DNA of 54,124 nucleotides from Opitutaceae bacterium (GCA_035656555.1 DASRSJ010000054.1:1-54124), one strand, 5' to 3'. Shown: positions 9,532-48,470, counted from the first letter of the stretch. Numbers and translations: made by a program. Notes: generated from the sequence alone by a model not told the origin.

Positions 9532-9568
9532 GCGGTGCGTGGAAATTGGAGGAGGCTGGCGTCTGGGC

Positions 9569-9600
9569 AAAAAAAGGGCCGTCTCGTGCGAGAGCGGCCC
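9569..9600 (-). terminator. Rho-independent terminator after the glutaredoxin-like gene
   Basis: Minus strand reads GGGCCGCTCTCGCACGAGACGGCCC followed by TTTTTTT. The stem is 10 bp with a 1-nt bulge. Confidence 0.6.
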
Positions 9601-9630
9601 GGTTCGGTTAGGAGTTGCGGAGAGCTCTCG

Positions 9631-13112: not shown

Positions 13113-13134
13113 GGAATGTGGGTTTGTCTGTAGA

Positions 13135-14817: not shown

Positions 14818-14827
14818 GTCCTTTGTC

Positions 14828-15457: not shown

Positions 15458-15464
15458 GTTCTGA

Positions 15465-15500
15465 TTGACAAAGGTGAGGACGGTCTCACATATTTGTCAA
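15465..15500. promoter_or_regulatory. Candidate TetR operator (nested imperfect palindrome)
   Basis: TTGACAAA-GGTGAGGACGGTCTCACATA-TTTGTCAA sits 8 nt upstream of the TetR start. The inner arms are GTGAG/CTCAC. Confidence 0.45.
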
Positions 15501-19638: not shown

Positions 19639-19701
19639 TGCTGCGAATTGCAGCAGCGCGGGCGGGTGTCGGTGAAAATGCTGAGCGGAAATGCAGCATT
19701 T
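19639..19701 (+). promoter_or_regulatory. Two inverted repeats, candidate enhancer (UAS) sites
   Basis: TGCTGC-GAATT-GCAGCA (19639..19655, 6-N5-6) and AAATGCTG-N10-CAGCATTT (19676..19701). They lie 75-137 nt upstream of the sigma-54-like promoter. Confidence 0.35.
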
Positions 19702-19775
19702 GGCGCGTGCGTCCATTTTCCCCGAATAACATGTAAGAGTTTATGGGGCAGGTGGATGTAAATAGTTAAATCGGT

Positions 19776-19790
19776 TGGCACGGTGGCAGC
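19776..19790 (+). promoter_or_regulatory. Sigma-54 (-24/-12) type promoter upstream of the porin
   Basis: TGGCACG-GTGG-CAGC has the GG and GC at consensus spacing (consensus TGGCACG-N4-TTGC). It is intergenic, 57 nt upstream of ATG 19847, with an AT-rich tract just upstream. Confidence 0.55.
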
Positions 19791-19846
19791 TAAGTGTGGC
19801 GCGAACTCCAGCTTCACTGAACCAACAACCTGCACTCACCGCGCAC

Positions 19847-20842
19847 ATGACCACAACTCGACTTACACTTGCCGGCATCGCCTTCCTTGCGGCCGCTTCT
19901 GCCTACGCAGACGTAAAGCTTAACGACAACTTCAGCCTGAGCGGCTACGCGGCCGGCTCCTACGTCGCCGTCGACCCTTCCGGCGCCCCCTCTTCGGACT
20001 CCTTCAACCTCGACGCGGCCAAGGTGAGCCTCCTCGCGAAGTTCGACGCCGTGAGCGCCGACTTCGGGGCCTACTACACGCAGAGCTCGAATGGCACCGA
20101 CAACCTGACGCTCATTGACGCCAACGTCTCCTACACCCCCGCGGACGGCGTAACGATCACGGGCGGCCGGTTCCTGAGCTGGATGGGCTACGAGGCCTTC
20201 GACGCGATCAACAAGAACCAGGTCAGCTCCGCCTACATCAATCCGGACGGCACGATCATGTTCTACCCGGCCTACCACGAGGGCCTGAAGATCAAGTACT
20301 CGACCCCGGACTTCACGGTCGGAGCGGCGCTGCTCGACTCGCTGAACGGGCCGAGCATCTACCGCGGCGACGGCGAGCTGAAGCACAACTTCGGCTCCGA
20401 GGTCTTCGCCTCCTTCAACGCGGCCAAGGGCCTGACGATCTGGACCGGCATCGGCTACGACAGCGCGGGCGATTTCGCCTACCAGATGCACTCGACGACG
20501 ATCTACAACGTGTGGGTCCAGTACGTCGTCGGCAACGCGACGTTCGCCGGTGAATACCTCTACCAGGACGCCGCCGAAGCCTCGACGGGCTCGGACGGCC
20601 TGATCCTGCTGGACTACGCCTTCACGAAGCAGCTCTCGACCGCCTTCCGCGTCTCGGGCGGCAAGCTCAAGGACACGGCGGCGGGCCCCGGCCTCGGCTT
20701 CACGAAGTTCACGGTCAGCCCGACCTACGCCCTGACCGACCACTTGGCGATCCGCCCTGAGATTTCGTACATCAAGTACAAAAACAATAACCCCATCAGC
20801 CACGACACGTTCTTCGCCATCCAGGCGCTCTTCAAGTTCTGA
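19847..20842 (+). CDS. Outer-membrane beta-barrel porin-like protein
   Basis: Signal peptide MTTTRLTLAGIAFLAAASAYA, alternating amphipathic strands rich in Y/G/S/T, and a C-terminal FAIQALFKF ending in Phe. Confidence 0.6.
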   Translation: MTTTRLTLAGIAFLAAASAYADVKLNDNFSLSGYAAGSYVAVDPSGAPSSDSFNLDAAKVSLLAKFDAVSADFGAYYTQSSNGTDNLTLIDANVSYTPADGVTITGGRFLSWMGYEAFDAINKNQVSSAYINPDGTIMFYPAYHEGLKIKYSTPDFTVGAALLDSLNGPSIYRGDGELKHNFGSEVFASFNAAKGLTIWTGIGYDSAGDFAYQMHSTTIYNVWVQYVVGNATFAGEYLYQDAAEASTGSDGLILLDYAFTKQLSTAFRVSGGKLKDTAAGPGLGFTKFTVSPTYALTDHLAIRPEISYIKYKNNNPISHDTFFAIQALFKF

Positions 20843-20854
20843 AGAGAGCCCGTT

Positions 20855-20870
20855 TGGCACTCCAACTGCA
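20855..20870 (+). promoter_or_regulatory. Sigma-54 (-24/-12) type promoter upstream of urtA
   Basis: TGGCAC-TCCAA-CTGCA has exact spacing and a near-consensus -12 element. It lies in the 46-nt porin-urtA gap. Confidence 0.6.
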
Positions 20871-20888
20871 GCCTAGACCCTCATCTCC

Positions 20889-22187
20889 ATGATAAAGTCC
20901 AAATTGTTCAGCCTGTTTGCGGCGGGTGCCATGCTATCGGCACCTTGCCTGAGCTCGATGCGAGCCGATACCATGCCTGCCGACGCGACCGTCAAGGTCG
21001 GCATCCTCCACTCCCTCTCCGGGACGATGGCCATCAGCGAGACGTCCCTGCGCGACATCCTCCTGTTTGCCTTTGACGACATCAACTCCAAGGGCGGCAT
21101 CCTGGGCAAAAAGATCGAGCCCGTGATCGTCGATGGCGCCTCGAACTGGCCGCTGTTCGCCGAGAAGGCGAAGCAGCTCCTTGAGGAGGACAAAGTCTCC
21201 GTCACCTTCGGGTGCTGGACCTCTGTCAGCCGCAAGTCCGTGCTGCCGGTCTTCGAGAAGGACAACGGCCTCCTCTTCTACCCCGTGCAGTACGAGGGCG
21301 AGGAGCTTTCCAAGAACATCTTCTACACGGCCGAGGCCGTTAACCAGCAGGCGACGCCCGCGGTCGACTACCTCCTCCAGCAGGGCAAGAAGAAGTTCTA
21401 CCTGATCGGCACGGACTACGTCTACCCGCAGACGACGAACCTCATCCTCTACAAGTACCTGCTCCTCAAGGGCGTCCCGATCGAGAACATCGGCGGCGGC
21501 CTCCGCAAGGACGAGTCGGGCAAGGTCATCTCCGCCGGCAAGTACGTTCCCTTCGGGCACACGGACTTCCAGCAGATCGTCGCGGACGTGAAGCAGTTCG
21601 CCGCGAGCGGCGACGCCTGCGTCATCAACACGATCAACGGCGACTCGAACGTGCCGTTCTTCAAGGAAGTGGTCGCCGCGGGCCTGACCCCGTCTGACTG
21701 CCCCGTTGTCTCGTTCTCGCTCGCCGAGGATGAGCTGCGCAGCATGCCGACGAAGGACATGGTCGGTGAGCTCGGCTGCTGGACCTACTTCCAGAGCATC
21801 AAGACCCCCGCGAACGCCGCGTTCCTCGAGGCCTGGAAGACCTGGCTCTCGACCGAGAACCACCCCGGCGTCATCAAGGACAAGCGCGCAGTCGACAGCC
21901 CGATGGTCCTTTCCTACGACGGCGTCTACCTGTGGAAGGCCGCGGTCGAGAAGGCTGGATCGTTCGACGTGGACAAGGTCCGCGCCGCCCTTGAGTCCGG
22001 TGTCACCTTCGAGGGGCCCGGCGGCAAGATCACCATGCAGGCGAACCACCACGCGACGAAGAACGTCTACATCGGCGAGACCCTCGCCAACGGACAGTTC
22101 AAGATCCTCGAGACATTCGACCAGCAGTACGGCGAGCCCTTCCTCCTCAAGGGCCTCGACGAGAAACTTGCGGCCAAGGGCCAGTAA
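20889..22187 (+). CDS. urtA: Urea ABC transporter substrate-binding protein
   Basis: Signal peptide, then [32 protein letters not shown] and [10 protein letters not shown], all characteristic of UrtA. Confidence 0.9.
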
Positions 22188-22237
22188 CATCGGGCCAATC
22201 CCGATTTCCGCCGAATAGGCACACAAACTGCGAACCC

Positions 22238-22269
22238 GGGGGCGGAGCTAGAAACTCCGCCCCCTTTCT
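22238..22269 (+). terminator. Intercistronic stem-loop between urtA and urtB
   Basis: GGGGGCGGAG-CTAGAAA-CTCCGCCCCC is a perfect 10-bp stem followed by TTTCT. It abuts the urtB ATG. Confidence 0.5.
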
Positions 22270-24045
22270 ATGAGAGTATCCCCGATCCCGAGCTTTGCCC
22301 ACTGGCTGATTGCCGCCGCGTTCCTGCTGGTGGCCGCGCTGGGCGGATACGGGGCGGAATCGACCGACAGGATGAACGAGGGCCCGGCGCGCTCCCTCCT
22401 GGTCGGCGCACTTGAGGCCAAGGGCCCCGAGCAGCTGAAGCTCCTGGGCGAGCTGGGAGACTCGGGCTCCAAGACCGCGGCCGAGGTGCTGACGGCATGG
22501 AGCCGGGGCCAGGTCTACCTGGTGCAGGATTCAGCCGGCAGGACGGTCCCCGTCCTCTTCGAGGAACAGCAGGACTCCGCGGGCAAGTCCCGCGCGGACA
22601 GCATCGCGGACGGAACGTGGATCGCCGACGCGAAGGGAAAGGAGGCGAGGTTCGATCCCAGCGACGCGACCTCGGTCGACGCCGACATGCGGCTGAGGAG
22701 CGCCATACGCCAGACGCTCGACATGCTGGCCCTCTCAAACCCTGACCCCGACGAGCGCCGCTCGGCCGCGGTGAAGCTCGGCGCCTCCCAGAGGCGCCAG
22801 TACATACCGGCGCTCCAGGCGCGCCTAGCGAAGGAGAAGGATTCCCACGTTCGGAGGGCCCTCGAGGAGTCCATCGCGCAGATCGACCTCACCTCCGCGG
22901 ATCCCGCCGTGCAGCAGAAGGCAATCGCGCGCCTCGCGTTCCTGAACGCCATGGGCTGCATCGACAACCTGAACCAGCTGGCCGCCGCCCCGACCACCGA
23001 CAAGCAGGTCGCGCAGGCCGCGAAGGCCGCCGCGGCCTCGATCAATTCCCACATCCAGCACGTCAACCTCTTCGGCACGATCTTCCGCGGCGTGAGCCTC
23101 GGCTCGATCCTGCTCGTCGTGACGCTCGGCCTCGCGATCACCTTCGGCCAGATGGGCGTCATCAACATGGCGCACGGCGAGATGATCGCCGTCGGCGCCT
23201 ACACGTGCTACGTCGTGCAGAACGTGTTCGGCACCGGCTTCAGCTTCGCGCTGACGCTGCCGTTCTCCTACGGCGGCCACCAGGTCTCGTTCGGGGCCAG
23301 CATCCCGGGCATCAACGCGACGGGACTCTTCTACGAGAGCTACTTCCTGTTCGCCATCCCGCTCAGCTTCATGACGGCCTTCATAGCGGGTCTCGTCGTC
23401 GAGCGGCTGATCATCCAGTTCCTCTACAACCGCAAGCTTGAGTCGCTGCTGGCGACCTGGGGGGTCTCGCTCGTCATGCAGCAGCTGCTGCGCATGGTCT
23501 TCGGCGCGAACAACGTCCAGGTGAACTCGCCGAGCTGGCTCCTTGGGCACTTCACGCTCGACGACGTTCTCTTCGGCTACAACCGCGTGTTCGTGATCGC
23601 GTTTGCCATCCTGATCGTGATCGGGACCTGGCTGCTTCTCACCAAGACCTCGGTCGGGCTCCTCATCCGCGCCGTGACACAAAACCGCGAGATGGCCTCG
23701 TGCATGGGGGTCCGCACGACCCGGGTCAACATGATGACCTTCGCCTTTGGCTCGGGCCTCGCCGGGCTGGCCGGAGCCTTCCTCTCCCAGATCGGCAACG
23801 TCGGCCCCAGCATGGGGCAGAGCTACATCGTCGACAGCTTCATGGTGGTCGTCGTCGGAGGGGTGGGGAGCATCGTGGGTACGGTCTGCGCCGCCCTCGG
23901 CATCGGAACGGCGGACCAGGTGCTCCAGCAGGTCCTCGGCTCCCCGGTCCTCGGCAAGATCATCGTCCTTGGCACCATCATCTTGTTCCTGCAGTGGAAG
24001 CCCGGCGGGCTCTTCACCACCCGCAGTCGAAACCTCGATTCCTGA
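22270..24045 (+). CDS. urtB: Urea ABC transporter permease with long N-terminal extracytoplasmic extension
   Basis: The C-terminal ~300 aa are a branched-chain-type permease ([15 protein letters not shown]). The N-terminal ~265 aa are a helical repeat region that follows a signal/TM segment. Confidence 0.85.
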
Positions 24046-24049
24046 GCGC

Positions 24050-25147
24050 ATGCTGGACCAATCGAAACGCACCGAGACCGCGATCGTCGCCTTCGCTGCG
24101 ATCATCATCGTAGGCGTTCTCCCGTGTCTGAACGCCTTTACGCCGACAGGGAGCCTGCTCCACATCAGCGATTTCTCGATCAACCTTTACGGGAAATACC
24201 TCTGCTATGCCGTCTTGGCGATCAGTGTCGACCTGCTCTGGGGCTACACCGGCCTCCTGAGTCTTGGCCAGTGCCTCTTCTTCTCCTTGGGCGGCTACGC
24301 GCTCGGCATGCACCTCATGCTGATGATCGGCAAGCTGGGCCAGTACCACAGCGACCTTCCGGACTTCATGGTCTTCCTCGGATACCCGAGGCTGCCGGCA
24401 CACTGGGTGCCCTTCCGCAGCTTCTGGTTCGCGTCCGCCGCCGTCGTCCTCGTCCCCGCGGCACTCGCCTTCGTCTTCGGCTTCCTGGCCTTCAGGTCCC
24501 GCATCAAGGGCGTGTACTTCGCGATCCTGACGCAGGCGCTCACCTACGCGGCGTGCCTGATGTTCTTCCGCAATGACTTCACGTTCGGCGGCAACAACGG
24601 CCTGACAGACTTCAAGTTCATCCTGGGCCATGACCTGCGGACGGCCGCCACCCAGAGGGACCTCTACATCGCGACCGGCATCCTCCTCTTCGCCACGTAC
24701 GGCCTATGCCGCTGGCTCATCGCGACCAAGTTCGGCAAGGTACAGCGCGCCATACGCGACCGCGAGAACCGCGTCCTCTTCTCGGGCTACGCCACGGCGA
24801 GCTACAAGCTCTTCATCTTTGTCGTCTGCGCGGTCATCGCCGGCGTCGCGGGCGCCCTCTATGTGCCCCAGGTCGGCATCATCAACCCGAGCGAAATGGC
24901 GACCGACAAGTCCCTGGAGGCCGTCGTGTGGGTCGCGGTTGGAGGGCGCGGGACCCTGGTCGGCCCGATCATCGGCGCCATATTCGTGAACGCGCTGAAG
25001 AGCTGGGCCACGCGAGCCTATCCCGACCTCTGGCTCATCATCCTCGGGACGCTCTTCATCTTCGTCGTCCTTTTCCTGCCAGGCGGGATCGTGAGCATCC
25101 CGGAGAGGGTGTCCGAGTGGAAGGCCAGCAGGAGGAAGCCGGTATGA
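24050..25147 (+). CDS. urtC: Urea ABC transporter permease
   Basis: Starts at MLDQSKR (ATG 24050). [26 protein letters not shown] is typical of UrtC/LivM-type permeases. Confidence 0.88.
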
Positions 25148-25899
25148 GCAAGAAGATGATCCTAACCGTCGAGGGCGTGAACAAGACCTTCGACGGCTAC
25201 AAGGCGATCACCAACCTCACGTTCCAGCTTGAGACCGGCGAGATGAGGGTCGTGATTGGACCCAATGGAGCTGGCAAGTCGACGTTCTTCGACCTCCTGA
25301 CGGGCCGAACGAAGCCCGACTCGGGCAAGATAGAGTACCAAGAGGACACAGATCTGACTTCGCTCAACGAGTACCAGATCAACCGCCTCGGCATTGGGCG
25401 CAAGTTCCAGACCCCGTCTGTCTACCTTGAGCACACGGTCTTCGACAATCTGCTCATGTCGCTCAAGGGGCGACGGGGCGTCCAGGCTTCGATCTTCCAT
25501 CGGTTGTCGCCGGCCGAGAACTCCAGAATCGAGGAACTCCTCGAGCTCGTGAGGCTCACGAGCAAGCGCGGGCGCTGGGCGGGGGAGCTCGCCCACGGTG
25601 AGAAGCAGTGGCTCGAGATCGGCATGCTGCTCGCCCAGGACCCGCAGGTGCTCCTCGTGGACGAGCCCGCCGCGGGCATGACCGACGAGGAGACGCACCG
25701 CACCGGCGAACTCCTCATATCGCTCTCTGGCAGGCACAGTCTCATTGTCGTCGAGCACGACATGGCGTTCGTCCGCCAGATCGCGCGCGACAACAAGATC
25801 ACCGTCCTCCACCAGGGAACCGTCCTCTGCGAGGCGCGATTCGACGAGGTCCAGGCAAACCCCAAGGTCCGCGAGGTCTACCTCGGCCGCGGAAAATGA
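25144..25899 (+). CDS. urtD: Urea ABC transporter ATP-binding protein
   Basis: ATGA overlap with urtC. Walker [10 protein letters not shown] is present, with [14 protein letters not shown] in the signature region and LLLVDEP as Walker B. Confidence 0.9.
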
Positions 25900-26624
25900 G
25901 CATGGAGGCGGCAGCACCCATCCTCGAGCTCGACGGTGTGGAGGCCGACATTGGCGGCTCCCGCATCCTGAGGGGCGTGGCGCTCAAGGTCGCCCCCGGC
26001 GAGGTCGCGTGTCTCATGGGCCGGAACGGCGTCGGCAAGACGACGACCTTGCGTGCGATCATGGGCCTGCGGCAGGTCAGGAGCGGCACAATCCGCTTCG
26101 CGGGCAAGATGATCGCGGGCGTTCCCGTGGCGGACAGGGCGCTCGCAGGCATCGGCTACGTCCCGCAGGGCCGCGACATCTTTCCGCATCTCACGGTCGA
26201 GGAGAACCTGCGCGTCGGCCTGTGCACGCACCCGAGAAGCCGAGAGGCCACCAAGTCGGACCTGGACGAGGTCTACACGCTCTTCCCCGTCATCAAGATC
26301 ATGCTCGGGCGCAAGGGTGGCGTCCTTTCCGGGGGCCAGCAGCAGCAGCTGGCAATCGCACGCGCCCTCCTCACCAAGCCGAAGCTCCTGATGCTCGATG
26401 AGCCGACCGAGGGAATCCAGCCCTCGATCATCGACGAGATCGGCGACACGCTCGGTCGCCTGAAGAAGCAGGGCGGCCTGGCGATTCTCCTCGTCGAGCA
26501 GTACGTCGACTTCTGCAAGGGCGTTGGCGACAGCTTCCACGCCTTGGACCGCGGGGTCGTCGTTGCAACGGGCTCCATTGCGGAGTTGACCGACGAGGTC
26601 GTGAAAAAGCATCTCCAAGTCTGA
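25896..26624 (+). CDS. urtE: Urea ABC transporter ATP-binding protein
   Basis: ATGA overlap with urtD. Walker A GRNGVGKTT, signature LSGGQQQQLAIARAL, Walker B LLMLDEP. Confidence 0.9.
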   Translation: MSMEAAAPILELDGVEADIGGSRILRGVALKVAPGEVACLMGRNGVGKTTTLRAIMGLRQVRSGTIRFAGKMIAGVPVADRALAGIGYVPQGRDIFPHLTVEENLRVGLCTHPRSREATKSDLDEVYTLFPVIKIMLGRKGGVLSGGQQQQLAIARALLTKPKLLMLDEPTEGIQPSIIDEIGDTLGRLKKQGGLAILLVEQYVDFCKGVGDSFHALDRGVVVATGSIAELTDEVVKKHLQV

Positions 26625-26641
26625 ACACCCCCCAGCGACAC

Positions 26642-29600
26642 ATGTTCAAGAAAGTACTCATAGCCAACCGGGGTGCGATCGCATGCCGGATCATCCGCAC
26701 CCTCAGGAAGCTCAACGTGGTCTCGGTCGCCGTTTACTCCGAGGCCGACGCCAGCTCACTCCACGTTTCGGCCGCGGACGAGGCCGTCTGCATCGGGCCG
26801 GCGCCGGCGACCGAGAGCTACCTCAAGTTCGAGGCGATCTTCGATGCCGCCCGGAAAACGGGCGCCGAGGCCATCCACCCGGGCTACGGCTTCCTGAGCG
26901 AGAACGCGGCCTTCGCGGAGGCATGCGAGGCGGCCGGCTTCGTCTTCATCGGCCCGAGCCCGATGCACATGAAGGAGTTTGGGCTGAAGCACACGGCCCG
27001 GGCGGTGGCCAAGAAGAGCAGCGTGCCGCTCCTGCCGGGAAGCGAGCTCCTGGCGAGTCTCGAGGAGGCGTGCGGCGAGGCGGCGCGCATCGGATACCCG
27101 GTCATGCTGAAGAGCACGGCCGGCGGCGGGGGCATCGGCATGAAGCTCTGCAGCGACCAGCCCTCGCTCGAGGAGGCCTACGTCTCGGTCAAGCGCCTCA
27201 GCGAGACCGCCTTCAAGTCGGGGGGCATGTACCTGGAGAAGTTTGTGTCGGTCGCAAGGCACATCGAGGTCCAGGTCTTCGGCGACGGGCTCGGCAAGGT
27301 CGTGGCCCTAGGCGAGCGCGATTGCTCGGCCCAGCGCAGGAACCAGAAGGTCGTCGAGGAGACGCCCGCTCCGGGTCTCTCGCCCGAGATGCGCGCCTCC
27401 CTCCTGGAGTGCGCGGTCCGGCTGACATCCACGCTGTCCTACCGCTCGGCGGGCACGGTCGAGTTCGTCTTCGATGTAACGTCGGGCGCCTTCTATTTCC
27501 TCGAGGTGAACACGCGTCTCCAAGTGGAGCATGGCGTCACCGAGGAGGTCACGGGCGTGGACTTGGTCGAGTGGATGGTGCGTCTCGCGGCAGGGGAGAC
27601 GGCGTTTGTCTCGGCGTACCGCCACGTCCCGAAGGGCGCCTCGATCCAGGTCAGACTTTACGCCGAGGACCCGAACAAGGCGTTCCAGCCGAGCTCCGGC
27701 GGCCTCACCGAGGCCGTGTTCCCGGACAACGCCCGCGTGGAGACATGGGTGGAGCGCGGCTCGGAGATACCCTCGTTTTATGACCCGATGATCGCGAAGA
27801 TCATCGTTGTCGCCGATGACCGCGTGGCGGCCACCGAGAAGATGAAAGCCGCCCTCGCGCGATGCCGGATCGCCGGCATCGAGTCTAATCTTGAGTACCT
27901 GCGCCAGGTGATCGCGAGCCAGGGCTTCGCTGACGGTATCATCCACACGAAGTGGCTGGCCACCTTCCCCTATGTCGCCGCCACGATCGACGTGATCGAG
28001 CCAGGGACGCAGAGCAGCATCCAGGACTACCCCGGCAGGACCGGCTACTGGTCGATCGGCGTTCCCCCGTCGGGGCCCATGGACGACCTGGGCTTCCGCC
28101 TGGCGAACCGGCTCGTGGGCAACGAGGAGAGCGAGGCCGGCCTCGAGATAACGCTCAGCGGTCCGACGCTTCGCTTCAACATCCCGACCACGATCGCGCT
28201 GACCGGCGCCGCCATGGCCGCCGACATCGACGGCGAGCCGGTCACCTTCTGGAAGAGCGTTCCCGTCAAGGCAGGGCAGACGCTCAGAATGGGGACCGTG
28301 AAGGGTTCGGGCTGCAGGACCTACCTCGCGGTGCAGGGCGGCTTCCAGGTCCCGGCCTATCTCGGCAGCAAGTCGACGTTCAACCTCGGCAAGTTCGGCG
28401 GCCACGCCGGCCGGACGCTGCGCCACGGCGACGTGCTCCCTATCGCAAAAACCTCGGGAGAGACCTTCGTCCAGCGGTCGGTGCCCAAGGAGCTGGTCCC
28501 CGCATACCACAGCAAGTGGGACATCGGGGTCCTCTACGGCCCGCATGCGGCCCCGGACTTCTTCACCGAGGGCTTCATCTCCACGTTCTTCACGTCGGAC
28601 TGGAAGGTCCACTACAACTCGAACCGGCTGGGCATCCGCCTCGTTGGCCCGAAGCCCGAGTTCACGCGCGCCGACGGCGGGGAGGCGGGTCTTCACCCCT
28701 CCAACATCCACGACACGGAGTACGCGATCGGCACGATCAACTTCACCGGGGACATGCCGGTCATCCTGGCGAAGGACGGCCCGAGCCTGGGCGGCTTTGT
28801 GTGCCCGGTGACGATCATCCAGGCCGAGCTCTGGAAGATCGGCCAGCTGCGTCCGGGAGACACCATCCGCTTCGTGCGCACGACATTCGCGGAGGCACTG
28901 GCGGCCGAGCGATGCCAGGACGCGGCAATCGCGGCGCTCGCTCCGCCGGACAACGACTGCCCGTCGCTCATGACGCGCTCCTTCACGCCCTCGCTCGGGG
29001 ACGGCGCCGTCCTCCACGCGACCGAGGCCTCTGCCGGCCGCCCGGCGGTCACGTACCGGCAGGCCGGCGACAAGTATATCCTGATCGAGTACGGTCCGCT
29101 GGTCCTCGACCTCGACATGCGCTTCAGGATCCACGCCCTCATGCAGTGGTTCGCGAAGAACCCGGTCGAGGGTGTCCTCGAGCTGTCGCCCGGCGTGCGC
29201 TCGCTCCAGGTCAACTTTGACAGCCGCAAGCTGCCCCTTGCCCTCCTGGTGGACATCCTCATGCAGGCCGAGAAGGAGCTTCCCGAGACCGAATCGATGG
29301 AGCTCGAGACACGCGTGCTCCGTCTGCCGCTCGCCTTTGACGCCAGCTCGACCCGCGCGGCCATCGACAAGTACCGCCAGTCGGTGCGCCAGAAGGCGCC
29401 GTGGCTGCCGAGCAACGTGGAGTTCATGCGCCGGATCAACGGACTCGCCAGTGTGGATGACGTGAGCCGCACAATCTTCGAGGCGAGCTACCTCGTGCTG
29501 GGCCTAGGTGACGTTTATCTCGGCGCACCCTGCGCCGTCCCCATCGACCCCCGCCACAGGCTCGTCACGACCAAGTACAACCCGGCGCGCACCTGGACGG

Positions 29601-30274
29601 CCGAGGGCGAGGTTGGGATCGGCGGCGTCTACATGTGCGTTTACGGCATGGAGAGCCCGGGCGGGTACCAGCTGGTGGGACGCACGGTGCCCGTCTGGAA
29701 CACCTACAAGCGGACGGCGGAGTTCCAGGCCGGGTCCCCGTGGCTCCTTCGTTTCTTCGACCAGGTCCGGTTTTTCCCGATGCCGGAGAAGGACGTCCTG
29801 GAGTTCCGCCAGGAGTTCCTGCGGGGCCGCGTGAAGCTCGACATCAAGTCCGAGATTTTCAGCGTGAAGAAGTACCACGCGTTCCTCGAGGCGGACAAGG
29901 CCGACATCGCCGAGTTCAAGGGCCGCCAGCAGGTCGCGTTCGACGAGGAGCGCGAGCGGTGGAAGCTGGAGGTCGCCGAGGTGGCGCCCGCGCAGGACGA
30001 GGGCGAGGCCCCGCCGTCCCCCGACGAGATCGTGCTGCCCCCCGGCGGCCGGCTCATATCGTCGCCCATTGCCGGAAATGTCTGGGCTGTCCCCGCGAAG
30101 GAGGGCGACAGCGTGACCGCCGGCCAGAAGATTATGATCGTCGAGGCCATGAAGATGGAGGTGGGAGTCGAGTCGCCGGTCCGAGGGACCATGGGCAAGA
30201 TCCTCGCGCCGCCGGGACGCCTGGTCTCGGCGGGCCAGCCGCTGGCGATCGTCATCGAGGAGGCCGCGCCATGA
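26642..30274 (+). CDS. Urea carboxylase (biotin carboxylase + KipA/KipI-like carboxyltransferase + BCCP)
   Basis: 1210 aa. Starts with the biotin carboxylase sequence MFKKVLIANRGAIACRIIRT. The central part resembles allophanate-hydrolase subunits 2 and 1. The C-terminal biotinylation motif is VEAMKME. Confidence 0.9.
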   Translation: MFKKVLIANRGAIACRIIRTLRKLNVVSVAVYSEADASSLHVSAADEAVCIGPAPATESYLKFEAIFDAARKTGAEAIHPGYGFLSENAAFAEACEAAGFVFIGPSPMHMKEFGLKHTARAVAKKSSVPLLPGSELLASLEEACGEAARIGYPVMLKSTAGGGGIGMKLCSDQPSLEEAYVSVKRLSETAFKSGGMYLEKFVSVARHIEVQVFGDGLGKVVALGERDCSAQRRNQKVVEETPAPGLSPEMRASLLECAVRLTSTLSYRSAGTVEFVFDVTSGAFYFLEVNTRLQVEHGVTEEVTGVDLVEWMVRLAAGETAFVSAYRHVPKGASIQVRLYAEDPNKAFQPSSGGLTEAVFPDNARVETWVERGSEIPSFYDPMIAKIIVVADDRVAATEKMKAALARCRIAGIESNLEYLRQVIASQGFADGIIHTKWLATFPYVAATIDVIEPGTQSSIQDYPGRTGYWSIGVPPSGPMDDLGFRLANRLVGNEESEAGLEITLSGPTLRFNIPTTIALTGAAMAADIDGEPVTFWKSVPVKAGQTLRMGTVKGSGCRTYLAVQGGFQVPAYLGSKSTFNLGKFGGHAGRTLRHGDVLPIAKTSGETFVQRSVPKELVPAYHSKWDIGVLYGPHAAPDFFTEGFISTFFTSDWKVHYNSNRLGIRLVGPKPEFTRADGGEAGLHPSNIHDTEYAIGTINFTGDMPVILAKDGPSLGGFVCPVTIIQAELWKIGQLRPGDTIRFVRTTFAEALAAERCQDAAIAALAPPDNDCPSLMTRSFTPSLGDGAVLHATEASAGRPAVTYRQAGDKYILIEYGPLVLDLDMRFRIHALMQWFAKNPVEGVLELSPGVRSLQVNFDSRKLPLALLVDILMQAEKELPETESMELETRVLRLPLAFDASSTRAAIDKYRQSVRQKAPWLPSNVEFMRRINGLASVDDVSRTIFEASYLVLGLGDVYLGAPCAVPIDPRHRLVTTKYNPARTWTAEGEVGIGGVYMCVYGMESPGGYQLVGRTVPVWNTYKRTAEFQAGSPWLLRFFDQVRFFPMPEKDVLEFRQEFLRGRVKLDIKSEIFSVKKYHAFLEADKADIAEFKGRQQVAFDEERERWKLEVAEVAPAQDEGEAPPSPDEIVLPPGGRLISSPIAGNVWAVPAKEGDSVTAGQKIMIVEAMKMEVGVESPVRGTMGKILAPPGRLVSAGQPLAIVIEEAAP

Positions 30275-32145
30275 TCATCGAAAGCCTGGACCTGACGACG
30301 CTGAGCGAGGGCTACAAGGCGGGAGCCTTCGATCCCCTCGACGTGATTGCCCTCATCTACAGGCGCATCGAGGCAAGGGGGAGCGACTGCGTCTGGATTC
30401 ACAAGGTTCCGCTGGCCGACGCCGTCGCGGCGGTGGGTAAGGCCAAGGCGCTCAAGGCCGGGGGGAAAGCCATGCCCCTCTTCGGGATCCCTTTCGCGGT
30501 GAAGGACAACATCGATGTCGCGGGAATGCCGACGACGGCGGCCTGCCCGGCGTTCAGCTACATTGCGAAGGAATCGGCTCCCGTCGTGGACCGCCTGATC
30601 GAGGCCGGCGCCATCCTCGTCGGAAAGACCAACCTCGACCAGTTCGCCGCGGGCCTGGTCGGCGTGCGCTCGCCCTACGGGGCATGCTCGTCCGTCTTCA
30701 ACGACAAGTATATTTCAGGAGGATCGAGCGCGGGCTCTGCCGTGGCTGTCGCCGCGGGCCTCGTCAGCTTCTCGCTTGGCACCGACACCGCCGGCTCAGG
30801 CCGCGTTCCCGCGGCCTTCAACAACCTCGTCGGATGGAAGCCGACCCGAGGCGTCGTCAGCACGCGCGGCGTCCTGCCGGCCTGCCGCTCGCTCGACTGC
30901 GTGAGCTTCTTCTCGCTCACCTGCGCCGATTCCCAGGCCCTGGCCCGCGTGGTCTCGCAGTTCGACGCCGCGGACCCGTTCGCACGCGAGATTCCGGGGC
31001 CAATCCCGGGATTGCCGTCCTCCTTCCGCATCGGCATTCCCGCCGAATCCCAGATGCAGTACTTCGGGGATGCGGACTCCCCCCGGCTCTTCGCGGCGGC
31101 CGTCGAGCGACTCAAGGCCCTCGGTGGCACGGTGGTCGAGATCGACTTCAAGCCCTTCTGCGAGGTGGCCGAGCTGCTTTACTCGGGACCCTGGGTCGCC
31201 GAGAGGCTGGCCGCGATACAGCCCTTCTTCACCGAGCACCCCGAGTCGCTCCACCCGATCACGGCAAAGATCATCGGCGGCGCGACCAGATACTCGGCGG
31301 TGGAGGCCTTCGAGGGCCTCTACAAGCTCGAGGCCCTGAGGAGGCGCACCGATGCGGAATGGTCGAAGATGGACCTCCTGGCGCTTCCGACCGCGGCCAC
31401 GACCTACAGGATCGCGGAGGTGGAGGCCAATCCCCTCCAGCTGAACACCAATCTCGGATACTACACGAACTTCGTGAACCTGCTCGACCTCTGCGGCATC
31501 GCTGTGCCGGCGGGCTTCAACGCCGCTGGCCTTCCCTTCGGAATCTCGCTCCTTGGGCCCGCGTTTGCCGACCAGGCGCTGATCGCGCTGGCGGGGCGCT
31601 ACCACCACGCCCTGGGCGGCCAGGTCGGCGCCACCGGCAAGGACATTCTGTCGCTGCCGCAGCCTGCCGCGCCAATCCCCACGCCGTCCGTCATGCTGGC
31701 CGTCGTCGGTGCGCACCTTGAGGGCCAGCCCCTCAACCACCAGCTCACGAGCCGCAGGGCGAAGTTCATCAGGAAGACCGCGACTTCCGCCGAGTACCGC
31801 CTCTTTGCGCTCCGGGGCACCGTGCCGCCGAAGCCCGGCCTCGTTCGAGTCAGCGACCGGAGCGGGCAGGCGATAGAGGTCGAGGTCTGGGAAATGAGCG
31901 AGGAGGCCTTTGGCAGCTTTGTCGCCGCCATTCCTTCTCCGCTCGGTATCGGAACCCTTGAATTGGCGGACGGAAAATGGGTCAAGGGCTTCATCTGCGA
32001 GCCGATTGCAACAGAACAATCGACGGATATCACCCAGTTCGGAGGGTGGCGTAACTACCTTGGCAGCCTTTCTGCTCAGCAGGGAAGGCCCACCGCCGAT
32101 GTCCCAGGATCTCCTGCTGACGCCTCCCGTGCCGGCTCGCCCTAG
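30271..32145 (+). CDS. atzF: Allophanate hydrolase (amidase signature family)
   Basis: ATGA overlap with the carboxylase. Amidase signature GGSSAGSAVAVAAGLVSFSLGTDTAGSGRVPAAFN. The C-terminal ~120-aa extra domain is typical of allophanate hydrolase. Confidence 0.88.
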   Translation: MIIESLDLTTLSEGYKAGAFDPLDVIALIYRRIEARGSDCVWIHKVPLADAVAAVGKAKALKAGGKAMPLFGIPFAVKDNIDVAGMPTTAACPAFSYIAKESAPVVDRLIEAGAILVGKTNLDQFAAGLVGVRSPYGACSSVFNDKYISGGSSAGSAVAVAAGLVSFSLGTDTAGSGRVPAAFNNLVGWKPTRGVVSTRGVLPACRSLDCVSFFSLTCADSQALARVVSQFDAADPFAREIPGPIPGLPSSFRIGIPAESQMQYFGDADSPRLFAAAVERLKALGGTVVEIDFKPFCEVAELLYSGPWVAERLAAIQPFFTEHPESLHPITAKIIGGATRYSAVEAFEGLYKLEALRRRTDAEWSKMDLLALPTAATTYRIAEVEANPLQLNTNLGYYTNFVNLLDLCGIAVPAGFNAAGLPFGISLLGPAFADQALIALAGRYHHALGGQVGATGKDILSLPQPAAPIPTPSVMLAVVGAHLEGQPLNHQLTSRRAKFIRKTATSAEYRLFALRGTVPPKPGLVRVSDRSGQAIEVEVWEMSEEAFGSFVAAIPSPLGIGTLELADGKWVKGFICEPIATEQSTDITQFGGWRNYLGSLSAQQGRPTADVPGSPADASRAGSP

Positions 32146-34513
32146 CGCGCAAGCCGTCAAGGTCACACCGACCGCCCCCCTCAGGAGGCAGAGAGGCGAA
32201 GCCGAGTCCGGCGCCAAGCAGGAGGCCCTGGAGAGAATGGAGCAGCTTCGAAGCGAGATGCTCCGCACGATGGAGATCCTTCACTCGGTGCAGGCGCTCT
32301 TCGAGGTGAAGCCGACCGTCACCCGGGCCGAGTTCAAGCACTTCGTCCAGTCGGCCCTGACTCGCCTGCCGGAACTCCAGGCGCTGGAGTGGATACCGTG
32401 CGTGCCCCACGCGCAGAGGGACGATTTCGAGCGGTCCGCCCTGGCGGACGGCATGGAGTCCTTCAGCTTCAAGGAGATCGGACCCGACGGCCAGATCATG
32501 CCCGCGCGCGAAAGGCAGGAGTATTCCCCTGTTTTCTATGCCGAGCCCCTGCAGACGAATGCCCCGGCGCTCGGCCTCGACCTGGCTTCCGATCCGCGCC
32601 GTCGCGAGGCATTGGAGCGGGCGGCGCGCACGGGCCTGCCGACCGCGACGGCCACCCTCCGCCTGGCGCAGGTGTCCGGCGAGCGCCTGGGCTTCCTGGT
32701 CGTCCTTCCCGCGAAATCATCCGAGGGCAAGGTATTCGGGTTTGGGCTCGCCGTTTTCCAGGTCGGGAGTCTCGTGGACGAGATCTTCTCGCCGCTTGTG
32801 TGGCGCGGCGTGAATATCGAGATCTGGGACTCCGAGGACCCGACGGCGCCCATCTACACGGGCGGAACGCCCGAGTCGGGCGAGGCTGCCTGGAGCTACC
32901 AGCAGGACCTGCCGCTCGTGGGACGCGTGTGGCGCTTCCGCTTCACCCCCAGCGACGCCTTCAGCATCGCGGACCCCGATTGGCTGCGGCGCTCCGCGGA
33001 GACGCTCATGAGGACAAACGAGGTCCTGGAGGAGAATGTCATGGAGCGCACGGCCCAGCTCGCGCGCCTCAACGCGGCACTCCACGGCGAGGTCGAGGTG
33101 AGGAAGTCAGCCGAGGCCGCCGCGGCCTCGGCAAACCGCGCAAAATCGCTCTTCCTGGCGGAGATGAGCCACGAGATCCGCACGCCGCTCAACATCATAC
33201 TCGGCTACACGCAGCTCCTGCAGCGGGACGAGATGATCTCGATGAAGCAGGGCGAGGCGATGCGCGCGATCGTCGAGGGTGGAAACCATCTGCTGTGCCT
33301 CGTCGATGGCATCCTTGACCTGACGAAGATTGAGACCGGCCAGATGGAGCTTTCGCTGGTCGATTTCGACCTCGAGATGATCATGAAGGCGCTGGCGGCC
33401 ATGTTCTCGCCGCGGTGCCAGCAGAAGGGGCTCAAGCTCAGGCTCGAGAGTCTGGGTGACGCCCCGATCTGGGTCAGGGGCGACGAGCGCAAGCTTCGCC
33501 AGGTCCTGGTCAACCTCCTCGGCAACGCGGTCAAATTCACCGACAGGGGCGAGGTGAGGCTGCGCGTCGTGCCGGGTTCCGGCCCGAACGCCTTCCGGTT
33601 CGAGGTCATCGACACCGGCCCGGGCATAGCACCAAACCTGCAGAGCCTCATCTTCGAGCCCTTCAAGCAGGACACCATCGGCCAGCGGATGGGAGGGACG
33701 GGACTGGGGCTTAGCATCGCCCGGCGCCTCATCGAGCTCATGGGCGGATCGCTCGACGTGAACTCGGCGCCCGGTTGGGGAAGCGACTTCTTCTTCACGG
33801 TGACGCTGCCGCCGGCCAGCATCTCGAGCCCGCTGCGCGGCGTGGAGTCCCACGCGGGGCTGCGCCTCGAGAAGGGCAGAATCGTCCGGGCCCTCATCGT
33901 CGAACCCGCGCAGAACAGCCGCAACGTGCTGCGCGAGATGCTTGAGGCCGTCGGCTGCGAGGTGGTCCTCGCCGAGAACGCCACCGAGGCCTCGGACGCC
34001 ATCAGCGCTGGGGCTCCCGACGTCGTCTTCGTCGACGTGCGCACGCACGCCATGGACACCGAGACGGCGCTCGAGGCCTCCCACGCGGCGCTGCGCACCT
34101 CGATGCCGAAGCTCATCTGTTACTCGGCGTCCGCCTTCGAGCACGAGCGAGACCAGGTGAGGGAGCTTGGCTACGACGGCTTCCTGCTGAAGCCCTTCAG
34201 GCTGGAGCAGATCTGCGAGTGCCTGACCCGCTCCCTCGGTGTTTCCTTCACGTCCGCAGCTGCCCCGCAGGCTGAGGAGCCCTCCCAGGAGATCGAGGTC
34301 AGCAAGCTGGCACTTTCCGGGGAGGTCATTCTCAAGCTGGTCTCTTCCGCTGAGATTGGCGACATGGCGGAGCTCCGGCGTATTCTGGGCGAGATCGAGC
34401 TGCTCGGCTCCAACGAAGGCGAATTCGCCCGGCGCCTCCTGGTCAGCGTCGAGCGCTTCGACACCGAGTCGGTGGCGAGGATGCTCTCGCAGCTCTCCTC
34501 CAACAAGCCATGA
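32099..34513 (+). CDS. Hybrid sensor histidine kinase with an apparently cytoplasmic CHASE-like sensor domain
   Basis: No TM segment anywhere in the protein. The N-terminal region has CHASE-like features (LQALEWIPCVPHAQRDDFE, YSPVFYAEPLQTNAPALGLDLASDP, TATLRLAQ). H-box AEMSHEIRTPLN, N-box LLGNAVKFT, G-boxes DTGPGI and GGTGLGLSI, then a receiver-like domain. The start is uncertain: ATG 32099 overlaps atzF by 47 nt, and ATG 32237 is the alternative. Confidence 0.8.
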   Translation: MSQDLLLTPPVPARPSAQAVKVTPTAPLRRQRGEAESGAKQEALERMEQLRSEMLRTMEILHSVQALFEVKPTVTRAEFKHFVQSALTRLPELQALEWIPCVPHAQRDDFERSALADGMESFSFKEIGPDGQIMPARERQEYSPVFYAEPLQTNAPALGLDLASDPRRREALERAARTGLPTATATLRLAQVSGERLGFLVVLPAKSSEGKVFGFGLAVFQVGSLVDEIFSPLVWRGVNIEIWDSEDPTAPIYTGGTPESGEAAWSYQQDLPLVGRVWRFRFTPSDAFSIADPDWLRRSAETLMRTNEVLEENVMERTAQLARLNAALHGEVEVRKSAEAAAASANRAKSLFLAEMSHEIRTPLNIILGYTQLLQRDEMISMKQGEAMRAIVEGGNHLLCLVDGILDLTKIETGQMELSLVDFDLEMIMKALAAMFSPRCQQKGLKLRLESLGDAPIWVRGDERKLRQVLVNLLGNAVKFTDRGEVRLRVVPGSGPNAFRFEVIDTGPGIAPNLQSLIFEPFKQDTIGQRMGGTGLGLSIARRLIELMGGSLDVNSAPGWGSDFFFTVTLPPASISSPLRGVESHAGLRLEKGRIVRALIVEPAQNSRNVLREMLEAVGCEVVLAENATEASDAISAGAPDVVFVDVRTHAMDTETALEASHAALRTSMPKLICYSASAFEHERDQVRELGYDGFLLKPFRLEQICECLTRSLGVSFTSAAAPQAEEPSQEIEVSKLALSGEVILKLVSSAEIGDMAELRRILGEIELLGSNEGEFARRLLVSVERFDTESVARMLSQLSSNKP

Positions 34514-36066
34514 GCGCCATGGACACGGTCATCGATTCCTCCCCGCCCCCGGGCGCCCTGGCCTCAATGGCCCCGGCAACGATCCTCCTGATCGACGACA
34601 TCTCCGCGAACATCGGTGTGTTGAGCGGGGCCCTGGAGTCGGCGGGCTACCGCGTCCTCGCGGCCCTCTCGGGCAGCGCCGCAATCAAGAGCGCCTCAAA
34701 GGCGCGCCCGGAGCTGATCCTCCTCGACGTCATGATGCCGGAGATGGACGGGATCGAGACGTGCCGACGGCTGAAGTCGAACCCCGCGACCGCGGGGATC
34801 CCGGTCATCTTCATTACTGCGAACGACGAGACCCAGAGCCTAGTCGAGGGGTTCCAGGCGGGCGGCGTCGACTACATCACGAAACCCTTCCTGATCGACG
34901 AGCTGCTGTTGCGCGTCAGCACACACCTGCGCATCCACCGGCTGACCCAGGACCTGAAGGCCCGCTCTGACGAGCTCGCGAAGTCGAACCGCGAGCTTTT
35001 GACCGAGATCCAGAGGAGAGAGAGCGCCGAGGTCGCGCTGACGCTCGCGGACGCAAAGCTCTCGGTCCTCACCGAAGCCGAGGCGCGCAGCTGGGGTCTG
35101 CAGGGCTTCCTGGGACAGGGACCGCTGTTCAAGCAGCTCCTGCGCGAGATCCGCGCGGTGCAGGAGTACCCTGGCACCAACGTGCTCCTGACCGGCGAGA
35201 GCGGCACCGGCAAGGAGCTGATTGCCCGCGCAATCCACTTTGGCGGAAAGCTTTCCAAGGGCCCGTTCGTTGCCGTCAACTGCTCGGCGCTCCCCGCCGA
35301 GCTCGCGGAGTCCTACCTCTTCGGCCACGTCCGCGGCTCGTTTACCGGGGCCATCGCCGACAAGAAGGGCTACTTCGAGCTGGCCGACAAGGGAACGCTC
35401 TTCCTGGACGAGATCGGGGACATGCCGCTCGCGATGCAGGCCAAGCTCCTGCGCGTCCTGGAGGACGGCGTCGTGACCCCGGTTGGCGCCACGACGGCGA
35501 AGCACACGGAGGTGCGCGTCATCGCGGCAACGAACGTCGACCTGCCCGCCAAGGCGGCGCTCGGGGAGTTCCGGCAGGACCTTTACTACAGGCTCATGCA
35601 CTTCCACGTGAATGTGCCTTCTCTCAGGCAGCGCAGGGAGGACATACCAGCCCTGGCCGCCCACTTCATCCGCGTCTTCTCCACCGAGCTGAAGCGCAAG
35701 CCGCTCGGGCTCCGGCCCGACGCCCTTGAGAAGCTGATGGCCCACCACTACCCCGGGAATATCCGGGAGCTGAAGAACACCATCGAGCGGGCGATCATCT
35801 ACGCCGGCGGCGACCACATCCTAGCCGAGCACATTGTCTTTGCGCCCCAGGTCTCGGCCGGGGCGACCGCCCCTGAGGCGCCAGGCAAGTCGCAGGCCGC
35901 GGCCGAGGAGCCGGGGCCTGCGTTCAACCTCGAGGCCGCCGAGACCCGCCTCATCGAGCGAGCATTGGCCGCCAGCGGCGGCAACGTCTCGGCCGCGGCG
36001 CGCCTCCTGGGCGTCGACAGGGCGAAGATTTATCGCTGGCAGCAGGCCCGCCCTCCCGCACCCTGA
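34510..36066 (+). CDS. Sigma-54-dependent response regulator (NtrC-family enhancer-binding protein)
   Basis: ATGA overlap with the kinase. Canonical receiver (LLIDD, LLDVMMP, KPF), then a coiled-coil linker. AAA+ motifs are [15 protein letters not shown] and GSFTGA. The C-terminus is a Fis-type HTH ([15 protein letters not shown]). Confidence 0.9.
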
Positions 36067-36073
36067 GTGCGGG

Positions 36074-36781
36074 ATGTGCGTCCGCTATACCCTCCACAAG
36101 ACCGACGCCGCGCTGAACGCGATCTCGCGGGCGCTGGGCGTACCGCTTGAGACGCCCGACTGGGCGACCGAGCCCAAGTTCAACGTGTCGCTCACGAGCA
36201 CGATGCCGGTCGTGGCGCTTGCCGAGGAAAGGGTGCAGGTCCGGCCGATGAGATGGGGCCTCGTTCCCTCGAACGAGCGCTCCAACCCCAGGCCGCGGCT
36301 CCTCGCGAACGCGCGCTCCGAGACCGTGGCCAGCCTCTCGGCCTTCAGGAAGGGGACGGCGTCGAGGAGGTGCCTCGTCCCGGCGAACGGCTTTTATGAA
36401 TGGAAGACCCTGGGCACCCTGAAGCTGCCTTATCTCTTCACGCTGGCGGGCGAGGAGCCGTTCGCATTCGCCGGGATATGGGATCCCGCGGGCGACAACC
36501 TGCCGGAAACGTACTGCTTGCTGACCACGGAGCCGAATTCTCTCGTGGGGCAGGTGCATAACCGCATGCCCGTTCTCCTCACCCAGGAGATGATGCCTCA
36601 ATGGATAGGGGAAAAGCCGCTGCCGGAGGAAGAACTCAAGAGGCTCTTCCGGCCGCTGGATCCGGCTCTCATGGCGTCGCGTCCCGTCAGCCGGTTTGTG
36701 AGCAGCACGCGCAACCAGGGACCGGAATGCCTGGACCCGCCGCGCGAGGAGCCGAAGGAGCCTGAGCTCGACTTCGGTTAA
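36074..36781 (+). CDS. SOS-response-associated peptidase (SRAP/YedK family)
   Basis: Starts MCVRY (catalytic Cys2). NARSET, PANGFYEW and VHNRMPVLL motifs are present. Confidence 0.85.
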   Translation: MCVRYTLHKTDAALNAISRALGVPLETPDWATEPKFNVSLTSTMPVVALAEERVQVRPMRWGLVPSNERSNPRPRLLANARSETVASLSAFRKGTASRRCLVPANGFYEWKTLGTLKLPYLFTLAGEEPFAFAGIWDPAGDNLPETYCLLTTEPNSLVGQVHNRMPVLLTQEMMPQWIGEKPLPEEELKRLFRPLDPALMASRPVSRFVSSTRNQGPECLDPPREEPKEPELDFG

Positions 36782-48461: not shown

Positions 48462-48470
48462 TCGCCTGCA

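Follow-up and report, generated by a model that had tools for sequence, protein, structure and literature searches.

The locus that we describe here lies in a 54,124-nucleotide (nt) contig of an Opitutaceae bacterium (GCA_035656555.1 DASRSJ010000054.1:1-54124; "the window" refers to this whole stretch). It combines genes for urea uptake (a porin gene and urtABCDE) and ATP-dependent urea degradation (urea carboxylase, uca, and allophanate hydrolase, atzF) with a CHASE-domain kinase and a sigma-54 activator. The described system that works most like it is DctB/DctD, in which a sensor kinase and an activator built of receiver (REC), AAA+ and helix-turn-helix (HTH) domains are encoded beside uptake genes with -24/-12 promoters and upstream enhancers. 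The activator in the window also has the coiled-coil linker between receiver and AAA+ domain that is found in the DctD/NtrC1 type. Unlike DctB/DctD, which senses through a periplasmic double-PDC domain, the pair in the window has a predicted cytoplasmic CHASE domain as its sensor, genes for taking up and degrading urea as its target, and a putative sigma-54 promoter of its own. The circuit works like the DctBD-type substrate-specific sigma-54 systems and is made from known domain families; it is not an NtrBC system. We think it likely, though well short of certain, that the pair is a dedicated ureide-responsive two-component switch that would control the scavenging of urea and its ATP-dependent degradation.

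In Proteobacteria, urt, ure and uca genes are under the control of NtrB/NtrC, and here the likeness consists of sigma-54 promoters before urea genes and the same activator architecture (PMC12316311). However, the kinase in the window has a CHASE domain where NtrB has PAS, and the pair is tied to urea genes instead of glnA. The cytokinin CHASE receptors, PcrK from Xanthomonas and AHK4/CRE1 from plants, share the CHASE fold and the hybrid-kinase layout with the window's kinase; the plant CHASE receptors also bind phenylurea compounds. These receptors sit in the membrane, with a CHASE domain outside the cytoplasm that is framed by two membrane helices, whereas the kinase in the window has no such helices. 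In addition, its partner is a sigma-54 activator, and its gene is found among urea catabolism genes and not in a setting of oxidative stress or hormone signalling. The departure from known CHASE receptors is therefore one of location and partner. UreR of Proteus and Providencia, an AraC-type regulator, is likewise encoded with urea-degrading genes and responds to urea, not to nitrogen status, but it is a one-component sigma-70 activator of unrelated fold that controls urease and not the carboxylase/allophanate route. The yeast DUR genes offer a functional parallel, since urea permease and urea amidolyase are co-induced by a pathway-specific intracellular signal; their eukaryotic transcription factors show no homology to the proteins discussed here. 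In the literature open to search, which leaves most subscription journals outside, we found no published regulator that combines CHASE with sigma-54 and acts on urea or biuret genes. Within that scope the result agrees with the sequence-only reading, which was aware of no described urea-specific regulator of this type.

The case for a dedicated switch begins with synteny. If the pair serves urea genes, one would expect to find the two together elsewhere, as the sequence-only reading had proposed to check. They are together in all nine independent loci of the clade that could be inspected, in two gene orders. These nine loci include the window and the contig of P0008, on which only a truncated upstream gene is visible. 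The order uca-atzF-kinase-activator, with urt genes ahead of it on contigs long enough to show them, is found in the window and in loci L083/84, L090, L106, L107 and L108. The kinases are 69% (L106), 58% (L083/84), 54% (L107) and 52% (L108) identical to that of the window; for L090 the value is 52% over the CHASE region. The order kinase-activator-porin-urtABCDE-uca occurs in L081/82 (kinase 66% identical) and L089 (CHASE region 65%). Gene order has been rearranged at least once within this clade of kinases without membrane helices.

A second line of evidence comes from fusion proteins. An exhaustive search with the CHASE region gave scores of 352, 318 and 255 bits for the top three representatives and at most 197 bits for the rest. 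In two of these three (P0242 and P0243) a CHASE domain free of membrane helices is joined by a signalling helix directly to the coiled-coil linker, AAA+ and HTH domains, and both proteins lack the kinase core as well as the receiver. Identity to the window is 55% and 48%, respectively, over the CHASE domain, and 42% and 52% over the linker-AAA+-HTH activator part. The fusions argue that the sensor and the window's activator lineage work together. Their GAFTGA loop is degenerate (GGGARG in P0242 and PAGGPG in P0243, compared with GSFTGA in the window), and hence they may act without sigma-54. A scan of reference genomes for further relatives of the kinase matched the generic H-box peptide MSHEIRTP and returned unrelated kinases, except for L001.

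The activator itself consists of REC, a coiled-coil linker, AAA+ and a Fis-type HTH. Its receiver is intact (PF00072, 95.9 bits), with the acidic pair and the phospho-acceptor Asp in place (LLIDD...LILLDVMMP...ITKPF). The AAA+ domain (PF00158, 210 bits) has the Walker A/B motifs and carries GSFTGA, a variant of GAFTGA, and LFLDEIGD, and HTH_8 (PF02954) scores 37.3 bits. As far as its sequence can tell, the protein lacks none of the motifs that a functional sigma-54 activator needs. Judged by profile scores it is not an NtrC equivalog: it reaches 340.8 bits against TIGR01818, below the cutoff of 558.6, and its best match, AtoC, is also under cutoff.

The kinase is laid out as a long helix, the CHASE domain, an 84-residue helix into DHp with His358 (in MSHEIRTPLN), HATPase, a degenerate receiver and a small C-terminal helical domain. 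HisKA (PF00512) scores 56.5 bits and HATPase (PF02518) 100.4 bits. The CHASE assignment is supported by Pfam (PF03924, 137 bits), by a profile search (PDB 6k62, PcrK, E = 1.2e-19; 3t4j, AHK4, E = 9.8e-8) and by a Foldseek comparison with 6k62 (target-normalised TM-score 0.81, root-mean-square deviation 2.8 Å). By definition, CHASE lies outside the cytoplasm with a membrane helix on each side; the E in its name stands for extracellular. We tested 19-residue segments on both CHASE flanks for membrane helices, with a Kyte-Doolittle threshold of 1.6, and found no hydrophobic segment at either flank in the window's kinase and its 20 closest relatives. Nearly all more distant relatives have membrane helices on both flanks. 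The AlphaFold model (mean pLDDT confidence 81.8, about 90 over CHASE) starts with a long N-terminal helix, followed by the CHASE alpha/beta domain and one unbroken soluble helix (residues 293-376) that runs from CHASE into DHp and contains His358. Sequence and model agree in predicting a CHASE domain that is cytoplasmic. For the fusion proteins there is no choice in this matter, since their CHASE domain is part of a DNA-binding protein and must be in the cytoplasm with it. By lacking the flanking membrane helices, the clade breaks a defining feature of the domain.

A urea-type ligand for this domain is plausible because CHASE pockets of cytokinin receptors bind urea derivatives through a conserved Asp, a binding that has been likened to that of urea by the PAS domain of TlpB (PMC4378623). 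Our profile alignment spans the region of the cytokinin-binding Asp of AHK4, and we draw no argument about the pocket from it. Many invariant Arg and polar residues of CHASE (R76, R89, R107, R168, R276, E92, Q94 and N154) are common to the clades with and without membrane helices.

How the kinase would hand on its signal can be narrowed down from its receiver. The receiver match is weak (42.7 bits), and the acidic pair has changed from DD to EP in the window; the receivers of P0002-P0008 are also degenerate at the acidic pair (DP, DG etc.), and in all of these Asp, Ser and Lys are retained. Pfam showed no HPt domain in the kinase or in its 90-residue tail, which was searched to E = 5. With a degenerate receiver in the kinase, no HPt found, and an intact receiver in the activator, direct His-to-Asp transfer to the activator would be the simplest route. 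The tail holds a four-helix domain of about 65 residues that is conserved family-wide (consensus LPEDLxxRLxxAAE...LGPxGxRLAxHLRxF..YDM). It has no Pfam match and no conserved HPt-type His motif, and our search gave no known fold for it, with whole-protein Foldseek results dominated by the kinase core.

Beyond the clade, Luteolibacter, Prosthecobacter, Chthoniobacter and an Acidobacteriota bin have membrane-bound relatives that are about 40% identical. Their genes follow the order kinase-activator, a P1-like promoter (P1 being the putative promoter of the window's porin gene, see below), a secreted protein of about 310-330 residues that ends in ...VFF, and an isochorismatase-family enzyme. This enzyme matches the BiuH biuret amidohydrolase equivalog (414-421 bits, cutoff 370). 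A multi-helix membrane protein of 539 residues without a family match and a small Cupin_7 protein are often present as well. Units of this type lie at L085:13974-16220, L086:14036-18514, L088:14384-16162, L087:819-1997 and L001:13764-16631; L086, with its membrane-type pair beside biuH, belongs to Luteolibacter arcticus, a species in culture. Judged from gene content, the arrangement seems to be a unit for the uptake and degradation of biuret that has not been described before. Neither the secreted proteins (family X325) nor the 539-residue protein (X539) has a Pfam or NCBIfam family. The former are probably porins, given their signal peptide and C-terminal ...VFF, and the latter may be permease-like, given its hydrophobicity. 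L085 has the order porin-like gene, urtABCDE, kinase, activator, porin-like gene, biuH, cupin. In L096 a PAS-containing relative is followed by an activator, allophanate hydrolase and a permease. Biuret hydrolase and urea carboxylase both make allophanate, and for this reason the family seems to track the urea/biuret/allophanate branch of nitrogen metabolism.

One could go further and argue that the cytoplasmic CHASE domain senses urea or a closely related ureide by binding it directly, and that it belongs to a family of three forms that governs organic-nitrogen scavenging in soil Verrucomicrobiota and Acidobacteriota. These forms would be a periplasmic kinase by biuret hydrolase genes, a cytoplasmic kinase by urt, uca and atzF, and a one-component fusion of CHASE and activator. 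We put this forward tentatively and hold it to be somewhat less likely than not.

The switch could also be dedicated to these genes without urea being its signal. In that case the ligand would be allophanate, which urea carboxylase and biuret hydrolase both yield, or else biuret or another ureide. The cytoplasmic location of the sensor and the relatives that flank genes for BiuH and allophanate hydrolase leave room for urea, allophanate or another ureide, and the residues shared by both clades also count in favour of this reading. There is also a precedent, as allophanate is the inducer of the urea amidolyase and permease genes in yeast. However, membrane-bound relatives would see periplasmic compounds and not cytoplasmic allophanate, and allophanate is unstable and short-lived. 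Furthermore, L085 combines the pair with urtABCDE, and porin-urt units of the type found in L109 carry the same type of promoter. On balance a signal other than urea seems rather unlikely to us, but it deserves to be taken seriously.

Whether the pair acts on the urea genes through sigma-54 has to be judged from the promoters. We searched for TGGCAC-N5-TTGCW with up to two mismatches. On its own this -24/-12 pattern proves nothing, because the window holds 14 matches where 16.8 are expected by chance; the weight rests on position and conservation. Elements equivalent to P1 lie 5' of the porin gene in L110, L081, L089 and L109, which makes five loci with the window. In L110, the closest relative, whose porin is 72% identical, the sequence 5' of the porin gene has diverged apart from three islands: a palindrome (A), part of a second palindrome (B) and the promoter TTGGCAC-N5-xAGCTAAG. 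Near-identical 20-mers, TGGCAY-N5-CAGCTAAG, stand 5' of a non-homologous porin-like gene in L085 and L088, next to relatives with a kinase that shares only about 40% identity with that of the window. P2, in the gap between porin gene and urtA, is the sole match with one mismatch in the window and the best one there.

The promoter of the pair itself, P3, is conserved throughout the clade: TTGGCA[GA]-N6-xTGCT is found 19-22 nt 5' of the kinase start in 8 of 8 clade loci. It is intergenic in L081 and L089, where the pair lies 3' of an arginine decarboxylase gene, and in L090, where atzF ends earlier. In the other five loci it falls within atzF and is encoded by the codons TAC CTT GGC, although CTT makes up only 9% of the Leu codons in the cluster. 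The TGCT of the -12 element is held by a GCT (Ala) codon, and the amino acid before it varies (S, P, N). That rare codons are kept amid variable amino acids suggests selection on the DNA and not on the protein. The conservation of P3 further indicates that ATG 32099 is the start of the kinase and that the regulators have a sigma-54 promoter of their own. In L090 the palindrome GTCGCATTTCGCGAC (L090:2566-2583) abuts the -24 element of the kinase promoter and is a possible operator; half-sites like it (TGTCGCA/TGCGACA) stand 5' of promoters in L085 and L086. An identical 17-mer, TTGGCAGCTTTGTCGCC, is present in the allophanate hydrolase genes of the window (31910-31926) and of a distant organism (L096:13610-13626). 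Coding constraint by itself probably explains this -24-like match, so that promoter scans in atzF call for caution.

The repeats that had been noticed upstream of the porin gene (19639-19701) are real and resolve into palindromes A and B, about 41 nt apart from centre to centre. Palindrome A, TGCTGC-N5-GCAGCA, is perfect, and no other place in the window matches it without a mismatch; L110 has TGCTGC-GATTC-GCAGCA at equal distance from the promoter. In L085 and L001, whose activators have an identical recognition helix, a common palindrome (TTGCR-N11/12-TGCAA) lies about 100 nt 5' of the promoter. Shared helix and shared palindrome argue for activator-specific sites in that branch.

Several results weigh against a dedicated circuit. 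The chance-level number of pattern matches is one of them. P2 is kept only in L110 (TTGGCACCCTAACTGCA) and not in L081, L089 or L109. A search for palindrome A in all related loci found it in L110 only, and not in L081, L089 or L109. It could belong to another regulator, because L081 and L089 lack it despite an identical recognition helix in the activator. A comparison of 8-mers upstream of P1 and P3 gave no shared motif. L109 has the porin-urtABCDE block without a kinase/activator pair within 10 kb, a subgroup of the 40%-identical relatives (L092-L095 and L105) has no urea-related neighbours in the sequence inspected, and rpoN is absent from the window. For Opitutia, sigma-54 regulons have been reported (PMC12316311).

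Some of these results are what one would expect if the promoters and palindromes were targets of general NtrC, with the pair switched on via P3 and only fine-tuning the urea genes or controlling other genes. NtrC sites typically have the layout 6-N5-6 with TGC...GCA ends, and so does palindrome A; its absence in L081 and L089 and the lack of a motif common to P3 and P1 point the same way. Proteobacterial urea genes are indeed under NtrC and sigma-54, and sigma-54 promoters have been reported 5' of urease genes and genes associated with urea carboxylase (PMC12316311). However, general NtrC would not account for a pair that is linked to urea genes at every clade locus in either arrangement, for a P1-type promoter that travels with the pair even before a non-homologous porin gene, or for fusion proteins that tie the sensor to this activator lineage. 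Palindrome A also occurs just once in 54 kb although gltB is present, with no copy near that gene. We therefore regard control by general NtrC as unlikely. That the pair stands beside the urea genes by accident, with chance promoter matches and no regulatory link, agrees with the number of bare matches, but it can be dismissed as extremely improbable given synteny kept down to 52% kinase identity with rearranged order, P3 preserved via rare codons, a conserved P1 and hairpin, the fusion proteins, and identities of 52-74% among the related loci, which exclude assembly duplicates of one organism.

A dedicated switch does not have to be organised as a single operon. Profile searches confirm that the porin gene, urtABCDE, uca, atzF, kinase and activator genes are co-directional, as was first read from the sequence. 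The tight spacing from urtB to the activator holds as well. There are gaps of 4 nt (urtB-urtC) and 17 nt (urtE-uca), four ATGA junctions (urtC/urtD, urtD/urtE, uca/atzF and kinase/activator) and a 47-nt overlap of atzF and kinase with the start at ATG 32099, a start that conservation backs. The same reading had counted two sizeable upstream gaps, each with a -24/-12 match. Both matches are there (19776-19791 and 20855-20870), but the gaps upstream of urtB number three, and the third, of 82 nt between urtA and urtB, carries a strong hairpin of terminator type instead of a promoter. A hairpin and T-run are present at the equivalent position in 7 of 8 related loci, and their sequences are unrelated. 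Such hairpins are the usual means to make more binding protein than membrane subunits, and we read this one as a putative partial terminator or attenuator that would set the ratio of porin and UrtA to UrtBCDE. Transcription further downstream would then depend on read-through. Of the autoregulated sigma-54 loop that had been proposed, the dedicated pair has stood up (synteny, conserved P1, fusions). The single operon fed from the 5' promoters only has not, because of the conserved hairpin after urtA and the conserved promoter P3 that kinase and activator have for themselves.

How might the switch work? For the ligand, the phosphotransfer route, the binding sites, the sigma-54 dependence and the activator of P3 we infer the following. 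The kinase would be a soluble cytoplasmic protein. Its ligand, bound by the CHASE domain, would be a small ureide that is present inside the cell once the Urt transporter is active, most likely urea, with its product allophanate as the main alternative. The signal would travel through one continuous helix to the DHp/catalytic core, and His358 would then phosphorylate the receiver of the adjacent activator directly. The receiver of the kinase may be a decaying regulatory appendage. Once phosphorylated, the activator would assemble on enhancer sites about 100-150 bp upstream and open P1 (porin) and P2 (urtA), and at the hairpin after urtA only a fraction of the transcription would run on into urtBCDE and the genes for urea carboxylase and allophanate hydrolase. 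Kinase and activator would be made from P3, with the activator itself firing this promoter in a positive feedback loop, or general nitrogen control doing so in a cascade.

Urea is a major nitrogen currency of soil and fertilised land, where biuret accompanies it as the chief impurity of the fertiliser. The circuit bears on how abundant soil Verrucomicrobiota decide on urea uptake. Bacterial CHASE domains are common (13,900 relatives from a single query), and almost none of them has a known ligand; the genomic context here gives a short list of candidates. If our reading is true, it would provide the first metabolite ligand for a bacterial CHASE domain outside cytokinin sensing. The domain is predicted to be naturally soluble here, which should make binding assays and crystallography unusually easy. 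That CHASE occurs in the cytoplasm, and even within one protein together with an activator, would also alter the textbook definition of the domain and provide a clean example of a sensor that shifts from periplasm to cytoplasm and from a two-component to a one-component system.

Table 1. Features of the urea cluster and other genes in the window (positions count from the first letter of the window).
Feature	Position	Strand	Evidence or remark
Candidate enhancer palindrome A, TGCTGC-GAATT-GCAGCA	19639-19655		~138 nt 5' of the -24 GG of P1
Candidate enhancer palindrome B, AAATGCTG-N10-CAGCATTT	19676-19701		Inverted repeat I10, 8-nt arms, 100% complementary
Putative sigma-54-type promoter P1, TTGGCACGGTGGCAGCT then AAG, 5' of porin gene	19775-19791	+	Pattern match 19776-19791, 2 mismatches
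BBP2/OmpL-like outer-membrane beta-barrel porin	19847-20842	+	Pfam PF07642, 78.9 bits; signal peptide, C-terminal F
Putative sigma-54-type promoter P2, TTGGCACTCCAACTGCA, in 46-nt porin-urtA gap	20854-20870	+	Pattern match 20855-20870
urtA, substrate-binding protein of urea ABC transporter	20889-22187	+	TIGR03407, 492.5 bits; Pfam Peripla_BP_5, 437 bits
GC-rich hairpin (10 pairs) and T-run in 82-nt urtA-urtB gap	22238-22269	+	Ends at urtB start codon
urtB	22270-24045	+	TIGR03409, 374 bits (equivalog cutoff 250)
N-terminal extension of UrtB	22270-23080	+	HEAT_2 match
urtC	24050-25147	+	TIGR03408, 426 bits (equivalog cutoff 296)
urtD	25144-25899	+	TIGR03411, 345 bits (equivalog cutoff 304)
urtE	25896-26624	+	TIGR03410, 302 bits (equivalog cutoff 286)
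Urea carboxylase (biotin-dependent, ATP-dependent)	26642-30274	+	TIGR02712, 1839.6 bits (cutoff 1303.85)
Allophanate hydrolase (atzF)	30271-32145	+	TIGR02713, 812.7 bits (cutoff 511); Pfam Amidase and AH_C
Putative sigma-54-type promoter P3, TTGGCAGCCTTTCTGCT	32060-32076	+	22 nt 5' of kinase ATG 32099, within atzF 3' end
CHASE-HisKA-HATPase-REC kinase	32099-34513	+	Pfam
Four-helix C-terminal domain of the kinase	34241-34510	+
REC-Sigma54_activat-HTH_8 activator	34510-36066	+	Pfam
SRAP (YedK-like) gene	36074-36781	+	Start MCVRY
Glutamate synthase large subunit (gltB)	4966-9630	-
Efflux operon	10480-15496	-
Large membrane proteins (DUF2339, DUF3999)	43079-48518	-

The cluster comprises ten genes, all on the + strand, between 19847 and 36066 (Pfam and NCBIfam). 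Urea carboxylase and allophanate hydrolase both match at equivalog level, and their genes adjoin through an ATGA junction. UrtA falls 0.25 bits short of the TIGR03407 cutoff (492.5 vs 492.75). Orthologues of the porin (57-79% identity) are encoded immediately 5' of urtA in L081, L089, L109 and L110. UrtB is 591 residues long and has an N-terminal extension of about 270 residues, which is also present in relatives (UrtB of 543-590 residues).

The genes that flank the cluster are unrelated to urea. On the 5' side there are a sugar isomerase-like gene and an FGGY kinase gene, and on the 3' side an SRAP gene and, on the other strand, a gene for a large Ig-domain protein. The SRAP gene starts only 7 nt past the stop codon of the activator and because of this spacing may be co-transcribed with it; it stands beside the pair in the window and in no other locus. 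The gltB gene lies 10 kb 5' of the urea cluster. Two adjacent large membrane proteins, DUF2339 (1157 residues) and DUF3999 (703 residues), have no assigned function. The G+C content of the window is 64-68%, and the closest relatives of its proteins come from metagenome bins of Opitutaceae and Verrucomicrobiota. The window stems from a soil metagenome. Sequencing runs that contain it are of metagenome type only, and one soil run (X1) has 93% of the sampled words. The efflux operon in the 5' part of the window encodes a TetR regulator, an MFS pump, an HlyD-type adaptor and an outer-membrane factor.

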